From a virus, in the IMG/VR virus record IMGVR_UViG_3300027815_000003, positions 32,001 through 96,000 of that record: DNA of 64,000 nucleotides; one strand, 5' to 3'. Every line of letters starts with the position of its first letter. Position 1 is the stretch's first letter. This document shows positions 33,658 to 40,834 of the stretch, piece by piece. A program made the translations under genes and the position numbers. The notes beneath the pieces are model-generated. The model was not told the origin of the DNA. It saw only the letters and a program-made list of their open reading frames with translations, and ran no database searches.

Positions 33658-36321
33658 TTATATTATTATCTTCCTTTTTATTTCACCATTTACCATTATT
33701 CTCCCGTCATACCCACAAACGAGACACAATTTATTATCCTTTATATATGCAGGATATCCTAATCCACAATCTGGGCAAAACTCTTCACCAGCACCACTTT
33801 GAACTTGTTTTCTTATCGCTGGAATATTATTTTCTATTACATTAGCAAAATCTTGTACATTACCCATAATCTGTGTACCGACATTCCCAACCAATTCACT
33901 ATATGCCTTACAAGCAAGCAAAGAACTAAAAAAACTATTTCCAGAAAATACAGCCTTACCGTTTCTTCTCACCAATAAAATATGATTTGAAACGGTTGCA
34001 CAATATATTTTACCATTATAATTTTCCCAACAGTCTGTTTTAACTTTGTTAGAATAAGGCATATTTTCTTTTTTCAAAACAGCTATTTCATATTTTAAAT
34101 GTTTTACAAAGCCATGTGGAGCTTTTTTACCAATATTATTTATCATATAAATATTTGATCCATAATTTAATTTTATACATAATTCCTGAAATTGATCAGC
34201 TAATAATTTAGATGTTGTACTATATCTTATATTTGTATAAAGTTGAGTCCCGTCCCCTAACATTAATGCATCAAAAATAATTTTAAGTTTATCTGTAGAT
34301 AATTCTAAACACCATTCTGGTATTTTTTTATTCCAAGAATATCTTCCAATTAAATTATCTAATTCTAAAGATAACCTAGTATTATATATCTCAAAATATG
34401 GGGCATCTTTATTTTTATAATTATGCTTTGTATATTTCCAGGGAAGTTTATTGAAACAATTTTCTATTTTTTCGCTTTTCCATCCATCTTTTTGATCTAT
34501 TCTAAAATATGCATTTTTAATACTTCCGTCTTTCTTTTTATGATAAGATGAATATCCTTCTGAGATAGAATATCCTAAAAATTCTAAAAATAAATCAATA
34601 TCTAATAATTCACCAGCCAATTCAACTTTATTTTTTTCTTTACCCCTCCATAATGCAGATTTTTTATATCTATATTGTTTACCTATTATATTTGACGCTT
34701 TTTTAAAATTAAAAAATGAAAAATCTTTACTGTTCCGTGAAACTAACATATTATGATTTGGTGTAACTAATAAATCAACATGATTGTTTTTTTGATGATA
34801 CATTTGGCCAGAATAATTTTCTGAAATAAGTTTAGATGGTTTTTCATATATCAAATATCCGTCTTTATCTAACGAGGCTAATTCATCTTCATAAATGACT
34901 TCTTTCCAAAATTTCCATCCCTTTTTTGTTAAAACTTCTGTTTGTTCATCGTAACATTCTCCGTGCCCATATTTTTTAGTTCTTGGCGCATCATAATTTC
35001 CATTTACACTTATTATCTGTGTATGTTGCATTATATCAAACATATATTCTATTTTTTTAGTATTTATTATTTTACTATAATTAGCTGCAAGAACACCAAT
35101 ATTTGTCCTTCCAAAAACATGACCGTGCCAACAAGATGTTAAACCTCTATCATCTAATTCTGGTCTTGTAGAATCCCAATAACCTCTTGTTATATTAAAA
35201 TTTTCTGACAATAAATTAAAATATTCAACTTGATCATTTGGTTCCCAATTCCATAAAAGTTTTTGAAAAATTTGTATCATTTTTCCAGTTTTTTCATTTA
35301 CCTTAAATATACTTACATGTGTCGGGTCTATTTTTACTCCTATATCAGCACCAGCAATAATAAACCAATCATCACCAAATTCGTGCTTTTCATATTCATC
35401 TAAATTTTTCAAATCATAATTTTCACATTGTTTAAGTGATTCTTCTGTAATATATGAATTTGCAGTAGAATATGGCATCATCATATATTCTGTAGCAAAT
35501 TCTCTTGGATTATTTTTTTGATAATCAAGTAAATATTTTTCAGTTGTTAATTCTGGACATAAAATCTTTCTATCTGGTGTTGGATTTAATGCGGTTAATA
35601 CTATAGGGACAAATCTATCATCATCTACAGCTTTCATCAACATATCATCTTGTGCCATTGGAGTTCCAGTAAGAATACGGATAATATGATCCCCAGTTGG
35701 AATATTATACGCCTCTCCCCAAAATCTATTCTCTATTTTTTCAAGTTGAGATGTATTAAGTGGGTTTTGGGGATCTTTTAAAATATCATCAAATACACCA
35801 AATCTATTTGTATGAACACCACGTTTAGCAGTAAATATTCCACCAGACATTATTTCACATCGTTTATTCCCAACCATATAACGAAATAAATATTCTGCAT
35901 CTTTCTCTGTATCTTTGAACCACTCTCCTAGTTGTTCATTATCAGATATTTGTCTACGCATTTCCCTTAAATGATATTGAGCAAGAGGTTCTATATATGA
36001 CATAAATATGCCACTTAAATTTTTAGTATCTTTTAATGTTTTTAAAAATATCCAGAGAGGAAATGCCTGGCATAATATACTTGTTTTCCAATGATATCTT
36101 GGAGCCATACAAACTATATCTTTATGATTTTCCCAAGCATATTCTGCTTTTTCTGCGATATATCCACAGTGCCATAATTTATAATATTCTGGTTTATCAA
36201 AACTTTTTGAAAAAATATTTACAAGAAATTCTTCAAAACTCCCAACTTTAATACTTGGCCTATTAACCAATCTATCATTTATTAATTTTGTTGCATCTTC
36301 AACTGTTATTAAATCAGACAT
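33658..36321 (-). CDS. terL: terminase large subunit with intein
   Basis: PRYHWKT Walker A-like, VFDDIL Walker B, GTPM, GADIG nuclease motif; C-terminal zinc ribbon. Confidence 0.85.
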   Translation of the reverse strand: MSDLITVEDATKLINDRLVNRPSIKVGSFEEFLVNIFSKSFDKPEYYKLWHCGYIAEKAEYAWENHKDIVCMAPRYHWKTSILCQAFPLWIFLKTLKDTKNLSGIFMSYIEPLAQYHLREMRRQISDNEQLGEWFKDTEKDAEYLFRYMVGNKRCEIMSGGIFTAKRGVHTNRFGVFDDILKDPQNPLNTSQLEKIENRFWGEAYNIPTGDHIIRILTGTPMAQDDMLMKAVDDDRFVPIVLTALNPTPDRKILCPELTTEKYLLDYQKNNPREFATEYMMMPYSTANSYITEESLKQCENYDLKNLDEYEKHEFGDDWFIIAGADIGVKIDPTHVSIFKVNEKTGKMIQIFQKLLWNWEPNDQVEYFNLLSENFNITRGYWDSTRPELDDRGLTSCWHGHVFGRTNIGVLAANYSKIINTKKIEYMFDIMQHTQIISVNGNYDAPRTKKYGHGECYDEQTEVLTKKGWKFWKEVIYEDELASLDKDGYLIYEKPSKLISENYSGQMYHQKNNHVDLLVTPNHNMLVSRNSKDFSFFNFKKASNIIGKQYRYKKSALWRGKEKNKVELAGELLDIDLFLEFLGYSISEGYSSYHKKKDGSIKNAYFRIDQKDGWKSEKIENCFNKLPWKYTKHNYKNKDAPYFEIYNTRLSLELDNLIGRYSWNKKIPEWCLELSTDKLKIIFDALMLGDGTQLYTNIRYSTTSKLLADQFQELCIKLNYGSNIYMINNIGKKAPHGFVKHLKYEIAVLKKENMPYSNKVKTDCWENYNGKIYCATVSNHILLVRRNGKAVFSGNSFFSSLLACKAYSELVGNVGTQIMGNVQDFANVIENNIPAIRKQVQSGAGEEFCPDCGLGYPAYIKDNKLCLVCGYDGRIMVNGEIKRKIII
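33937..34956 (-). mobile_element. intein (340 aa) in terminase
   Basis: CYDEQTEVLT..VTPNHNM..FLGYSISEG..LMLGDG..RRNGKAVFSGN followed by Ser. Confidence 0.9.
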
Positions 36322-40246: not shown

Positions 40247-40525
40247 TCAATAAAATAACCAATTTACCAAGACATCCATTAAGATTGTATCCAAATAAAT
40301 ATATAAATTATCCCTATTTTCAAAAATTTCTTTTTGCGCTATTTTTAATTCTGTTTTTATATTTGAGTTTTCTTTTAGTTCAAATATTATTATTATCTGA
40401 CTCGTGTTTATATCATTTATAATATAAAAATTTAACAAAAACCCTATGTTACGACTTTTTAACCAATTTTGTATAATATAGAATAGAGAATCTTTATCCA
40501 TAGTTTCTGTATTAATATTTATCAT
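40247..40525 (-). CDS. hypothetical protein
   Basis: ORF track. Confidence 0.5.
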   Translation of the reverse strand: MININTETMDKDSLFYIIQNWLKSRNIGFLLNFYIINDINTSQIIIIFELKENSNIKTELKIAQKEIFENRDNLYIYLDTILMDVLVNWLFY

Positions 40526-40834
40526 TTAATCTTTATTAGCAACTGCTAATAAAATTTCTCCATGTCAGGCTAATGGAACACAAAAACAAATTAAATCTTT
40601 TCCCTTTAATTCTTCTTTTACTGCTTTCAACAATTCTGGATTTCCCATAATATATTCTCTATATCTATCTATAGCTTCTTGTCTGGTTTTAACTTTATAT
40701 TTAGCTAGTGTCCCAGATAAATGAGAATACAAATTACCAAATTTTGTTGGACGCCCCACATAAATAGCCTCTTTAGGGATATCTTTATTAATATTTTTAT
40801 TATAAAGTTTGGGCATTTCTATAATCCTAACCAT
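40526..40834 (-). CDS. DUF4326 protein with in-frame TGA at a conserved Cys (candidate selenoprotein or nonsense allele)
   Basis: VYVGRPTKFGN-type motif (AIYVGRPTKFGN); ELKGKDLICFCVPLA[TGA]HGEILLAVANKD; reading through TGA ends at TAA 40526-40528 abutting the next ATG. Confidence 0.8.
40532..40553 (-). promoter_or_regulatory. SECIS-like hairpin downstream of in-frame TGA
   Basis: TTTATTAGC-AGTT-GCTAATAAA, perfect 9-bp stem starting 12 nt after TGA. Confidence 0.5.

Follow-up and report, generated by a model that had tools for sequence, protein, structure and literature searches.

The window analyzed here, a stretch of 64,000 nucleotides, belongs to a viral contig of 190,284 bases with a G+C content of 30%. 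The ends of this contig (G000:C1) overlap, with the last 11 kb repeating the start, and a record of 179,140 bases also exists; the phage genome is probably a circle of 179,140 bases. The minus strand of the window is the coding strand of a DUF4326 gene that contains an in-frame TGA, and the locus comprises the following features:

40526–40816, minus strand: DUF4326 gene (PF14216; T4 NrdA.1-like; phrog_464), 96 codons from the probable start, with one in-frame TGA
40565–40567, minus strand: proposed selenocysteine (Sec) codon TGA at the third invariant Cys of CxCxPxxCH, residue 84 (90 in the 102-aa frame)
40526–40564, minus strand: read-through tail of 12 codons, encoding the invariant His and the C-terminal helix, with TAA at its end
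40532–40553, minus strand: SECIS-like hairpin, 9-bp stem from +12, loop AGUU at 40544–40541, G at +22 (40543)
40247–40525, minus strand: downstream ORF of 92 aa with no known family, beginning directly past the TAA
40819–41325, minus strand: upstream phosphoribosyltransferase-like gene (weak PF00156), which served to locate syntenic sister phages

When TGA is read as U, the frame from 40834 to 40526 is open over 102 aa and contains a single TGA (40567–40565), the one that the first-pass annotation of this DNA had described. Its start, on the other hand, is better placed at ATG 40816 than at 40834, because homologs begin there and this codon lies 2 nt past the upstream stop with AGGA in front; the predicted product would then probably be 96 aa long, with Sec84. 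The 102-aa translation matched PF14216 with 62.9 bits (curated cut-off 25) over residues 16–96, which covers both sides of the UGA, and the read-through tail could be aligned with homologs, so that coding is conserved on both flanks. One DUF4326 homolog is labelled T4 NrdA.1-like in a GenBank phage. The NCBIfam search returned no match for the gene, and no homolog of solved structure was found by sequence for the protein. Across 100 DUF4326 homologs, all three Cys of the motif, of which the third is the TGA column, were invariant, as was the His next to the third, and Trp never occurred at the TGA column; the earlier claim that UGA occupies a conserved Cys of this family is thus well supported. 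Termination at the TGA would deprive the product of two invariant residues and of its last helix. Read-through restores this C-terminus and ends at a TAA (40528–40526) that directly abuts the next ATG (40525), also as claimed before. If the 92-aa ORF that begins there is translationally coupled, its output could track Sec read-through, which is speculative; the sister phage L166 carries a 91-aa ORF with a similar start behind its DUF4326 homolog.

TGA is an ordinary stop in the phage genome, where it ends 29 of the 199 minus-strand ORFs. Global TGA recoding was therefore rejected, as it had been in the first-pass annotation. Neither selB, selD, nor a tRNA with a UCA anticodon (tRNA-Sec) was found in the phage genome. 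One tRNA gene outside the window (G000:C1:15690–15783, minus strand, equal to L143:1501–1590) scored 46.1 bits against the Rfam tRNA-Sec cut-off of 47. Judged by the UCA anticodon and the 8/5 acceptor/T-stem fold, it was rejected as tRNA-Sec, given its CCA anticodon, Trp identity elements, and 7/5 fold. It is a 94-nt tRNA-Trp(CCA) that has a U11:A24 pair and whose variable arm is long, and a 93-nt tRNA-Ile(UAU) at G000:1867–1959 apparently has a long arm too. A search for the host via RecA matched only viral clusters. A single 37-nt CRISPR-like repeat, also outside the window (G000:C1:174992–175028, minus strand, equal to L168), represents a class known from arrays of Bacillota (10 of 401 genomes) and Deinococcus (plasmids) and from papers on Thermus; none of the matches listed was exact, and no host was assigned. 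Elsewhere in the window, an 887-aa terminase-like ORF (33658–36321, minus strand) contains what by eye resembles an intein-like insertion, with no Pfam match at E 0.001.

The arms of the hairpin lie at 40553–40545 (+12 to +20) and 40540–40532. This agrees with the 9-bp stem, 12 nt past the TGA, with a 4-nt loop and a G at +22, that had been reported from the sequence, and the bulged U of the E. coli element was not seen, as also noted then. The hairpin has an MFE of −8.9 kcal/mol in a fold that begins at the UGA, with z between −2.4 and −3.0 relative to dinucleotide shuffles, and persists when folded in a context of 121 nt. All constraints of the published bacterial SECIS model, namely a stem of 4–16 bp, a loop of 3–9 nt with G in the first two places, a distance of 16–37 nt from the UGA, and an MFE of −7.5 or below (PMC13188914), were satisfied, as scored with an own implementation rather than bSECISearch. 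The Rfam SECIS models gave no match at the hairpin. A hairpin of this quality was found at only one of 627 Cys codons in the long ORFs of this genome, and the hairpin of this gene ties for best among the 158 TGA-ended ORFs. Two other ORFs at the same level are short and lie on the plus strand, opposite the main coding strand of the genome; no other credible gene with TGA and hairpin, and no second selenoprotein candidate, was identified in the phage genome. When the gene was shuffled synonymously, 30 of 400 sequences (7.5%) folded as well and 152 of 400 passed −4 kcal/mol. This rate reflects a peptide whose codons are nearly palindromic, and the peptide alone accounts for part of the hairpin in this gene.

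A pattern scan, limited to the CxCxPxxCH[GA][DE] spacing, identified five further DUF4326 genes from metagenomes in which the third column is TGA (L007, L008, L009, L010, and L014) and a sixth in a Blastocatellia MAG (L019). This MAG is the only cell genome with a third-column TGA and contains selA and tRNA-Sec, and the hairpin of its gene is weak. Nine of the 15 pattern matches in metagenomes and genomes were chance frames and not DUF4326. The IMG/VR scan for third-column TGA, which did not include the genome of this phage, gave no DUF4326 match, and a wider first-column scan of IMG/VR gave no additional genes. Stops within the motif in IMG/VR were TGA at Cys columns in three cases (first Cys in L004 and L005, second Cys in L003) and no TAA or TAG at the Trp column, although counts were small. 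Five of these TGA genes have hairpins of their own:

L004:821–823, plus strand: first-Cys TGA from IMG/VR, hairpin of −9.7 kcal/mol, matched by 2 of 400 synonymous shuffles
L005:3509–3511, plus strand: first-Cys TGA from IMG/VR, hairpin of −7.7 kcal/mol, matched by none of 400 synonymous shuffles
L008:346–400, plus strand: third-column TGA gene with a GGUU-loop hairpin in the E. coli fdhF register, matched by 2 of 400 shuffles
L009:1203–1257, minus strand: third-column TGA gene with hairpin, matched by 9 of 400 synonymous shuffles
L014:3489–3543, minus strand: third-column TGA gene with hairpin, matched by 3 of 400 synonymous shuffles

The first Cys of the motif is thus a second candidate Sec position in DUF4326. 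The neighbours of L008 and L009 are phage-type genes encoding RNase H, a resolvase, a Cas4-like exonuclease, and dCMP deaminase. In L008 and L014, an unconstrained fold favours a different hairpin. No convincing hairpin was present in L003, L007, L010, and L019, and therefore nonsense changes or errors do occur in DUF4326. The homologs with TGA at this column that the first-pass annotation had called for do exist, three of them with hairpins, but none of the six is close to this gene.

The association between TGA and hairpin was scored by the best hairpin whose loop of 3–7 nt carries GU in its first two places, between +18 and +24. Among third-column genes, 4 of the 7 with TGA had a hairpin of −4 kcal/mol or below, compared with 3 of the 121 with Cys (Fisher p 1.1e-4); the difference remained when this gene was left out (3/6 vs. 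3/121, p 1.1e-3). None of the 47 AT-rich Cys controls reached −4 kcal/mol. At the first column, both TGA genes were below −6 kcal/mol (−7.7 and −9.7), as against 5 of 127 at −6 kcal/mol or below. A looser own version of the published SECIS model was passed by 4 of 7 TGA genes and 27 of 121 Cys genes (p 0.06). The narrow criterion was fixed partly after several sequences had been inspected, and the Cys controls came from IMG/VR whereas most TGA cases came from other collections. The nearest Cys relatives of L009, L008, and L005 (L022, L058, and L037, respectively) have no hairpin, and the hairpins of the TGA genes differ in register.

The upstream gene led to two syntenic sister contigs with 27–28% G+C (L166 and L167), whose DUF4326 genes, 41% and 58% identical to this one, carry TGT without a hairpin. 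Compared with L167, the substitutions past the codon turn out to be the ones that form the stem and supply the loop G. The first-pass annotation would have been refuted by close homologs with TGT and no hairpin; this is met only in part, because the sisters are not close at these identities. The searches turned up no close relative that shares this TGA, and hence no conserved, covarying hairpin. The other TGA genes are 34–45% identical to this gene and each is nearer to Cys genes in the tree, which suggests separate gains, although the tree is too poorly resolved to count origins. On this weak tree, the Cys-to-Sec change seems to have arisen separately here and in several lineages, at either of two positions. 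The TGT without hairpin in the syntenic sisters also fits a lineage-specific gain.

The structure model of the protein (pLDDT 95.6) has a strand at 81–83 and a helix at 91–99, and its predicted fold agrees with viral DUF4326 models (TM 0.80). No Foldseek match was obtained at E 0.001; weak structural matches included the RapZ C-domain (Z 5.0, rmsd 3.2–3.4) and many dual-specificity phosphatases (Z 2–3.2). DUF4326 has been assigned to the rhodanese-phosphatase superfamily and proposed to act on ADP-ribose phosphates (PMC9503650; PMC7824862), and the weak matches are in line with the assignment of PMC9503650. The protein would be a small enzyme whose fold is probably phosphatase/rhodanese-like; its activity, as for the whole family, is only predicted. 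In the model, a strand terminates with the first Cys, and the next helix begins at Sec, seven residues further along. In PTP-type phosphatases, the residue seven past the catalytic Cys (Ser/Thr) contacts the thiolate; therefore, the two columns at which TGA and hairpin occur probably adjoin each other in a single site. The most likely place for Sec is in the active site, next to the first Cys, where its inferred role may be that of a nucleophile helper, redox partner, or metal ligand. A possible alternative is a zinc site formed by the three Cys and the His.

Site-specific insertion of Sec by host machinery is favored because TGA and hairpin occur as a pair in unrelated DUF4326 genes and because the phage itself lacks Sec machinery. 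A lineage-specific Cys-to-Sec change in a phage DUF4326 gene, with UGA decoded by host SelB, is considered the likely explanation, in which both Sec insertion and the host machinery are inferred. The first-pass annotation had proposed such insertion through host SelB and tRNA-Sec; it gained support at the level of the family, but remains unproven for this gene. Decoding of an in-frame UGA by host SelB via a hairpin is an established bacterial pathway (PMC13188914). In a Sec-using bacterial host, SelB with GTP and Sec-tRNA(Sec) would bind the hairpin just 3' of the UGA and insert Sec, after which the ribosome would melt the hairpin, read 12 more codons, and stop at the TAA to release a 96-aa selenoprotein. 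In the absence of selenium, the UGA would terminate translation and leave an 83-aa piece without the invariant Cys-His and the last helix. A broader interpretation can be offered with only a slight leaning in its favor: DUF4326 may be a selenoprotein family that has escaped notice. In it, phages would have converted either of two neighbouring active-site Cys to Sec on several occasions, each time building an in-ORF SECIS, and would have made a predicted ADP-ribose-processing enzyme dependent on host SelB and selenium.

The most serious competing explanation, though a rather unlikely one, is that the gene was dispensable and was recently inactivated by a TGT-to-TGA nonsense mutation, and that the hairpin is a by-product of the nearly palindromic Leu-Ala-Val-Ala-Asn codons. 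A single transversion is enough for this change, no relative shares the TGA, and a young mutation would also leave an intact tail and a flush stop. The proportion of synonymous shuffles that match the hairpin and the occurrence of the same peptide in some Cys homologs are consistent with a by-product, as is the existence of TGA without a hairpin within DUF4326. However, of the 57 single-base changes that would create a stop in this gene, only one yields a TGA at this codon, such a hairpin is present in none of the 121 Cys genes and at the single Cys codon of the genome mentioned above, and the pairing of codon and hairpin recurs in unrelated homologs. The recurrence in databases is less informative on this point, since the assemblies that bear the TGA may share one sample and argue more strongly against an assembly slip than against a nonsense allele. 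That the TGA is a sequencing or assembly error is very improbable: over 10,270 bases, TGA included, the sequence has an exact counterpart in a Logan contig from ERR2108713, an accession that none of the papers searched mentions, and the truncated product is recorded in four sources (NCBI, JGI/IMG, Logan, and ENA) and, with another start, on an 18-kb JGI contig, although read-level evidence is absent.

Read-through of the UGA without Sec also appears improbable. Here, the codon would be read by a near-cognate tRNA-Trp, maybe the odd one of the phage, or as Cys through SelB-linked or leaky decoding in the host. A C directly behind UGA makes for a weak stop, and C follows only 3 of the 29 TGA stops of this genome; at this site, however, the C is forced by the His codon. 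The long variable arm and U11:A24 pair of the phage tRNA with its CCA anticodon could be taken in favor of Trp insertion, but this tRNA has Trp identity elements and a 7/5 fold, the genome contains no UCA tRNA, and Trp is absent from the TGA column.

No Sec form of DUF4326 has been described in the literature, and DUF4326/PF14216 is absent from the 2026 table of 119 prokaryotic selenoprotein families and from the deep-Sep supplements; the papers concerned (including PMC13188914) do not mention phages. No published phage selenoprotein was found in the literature searched. In one paper, phage selenoproteins are merely inferred, from phage tRNA-Sec calls (PMC10747093), and a 2019 review gave two poxvirus proteins as the only proven viral selenoproteins. 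If Sec insertion at this site is true, phages draw on the Sec machinery of their hosts to express genes of their own, such products are cut short by gene callers (pieces of 83 and 89 aa are stored in databases for this gene), a SECIS in a phage is a clue to its host, and the position of Sec points to the active site of a domain that is widespread but of untested function. The scattered gains at two columns would also offer a natural model, on a small scale, for the origin of Sec from Cys.

The candidate resembles the E. coli fdhF-type genes with an in-ORF SECIS (PMC13188914) in having an in-frame UGA at a conserved Cys column, a stem that begins about 11–12 nt past the UGA, a small loop with G then U, and widespread Cys homologs. 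In contrast to these genes, it is located in a phage without Sec machinery in cis, its loop G is at +22 and not at +20 as in E. coli fdhF, and it lacks the bulged U. Unlike known bacterial Sec families, the TGA members of DUF4326 are scattered singletons and not a clade. Reliance of a viral gene on host Sec machinery is shared with MC066L of the molluscum contagiosum poxvirus and fowlpox GPX4 (PMC6769590). However, the poxvirus proteins are captured host glutathione peroxidases with eukaryotic SECIS elements, whereas DUF4326 is a mainly viral family in which a bacterial-type SECIS was apparently gained in place. Within DUF4326 (PF14216, phrog_464; PMC9503650, PMC7824862), the protein has the full domain, the invariant Arg, the Gly-Asn, and the CxCxPxxCH motif, and it differs from the other members of these viral NAD+/ADP-ribose systems in that its third Cys is coded by UGA.
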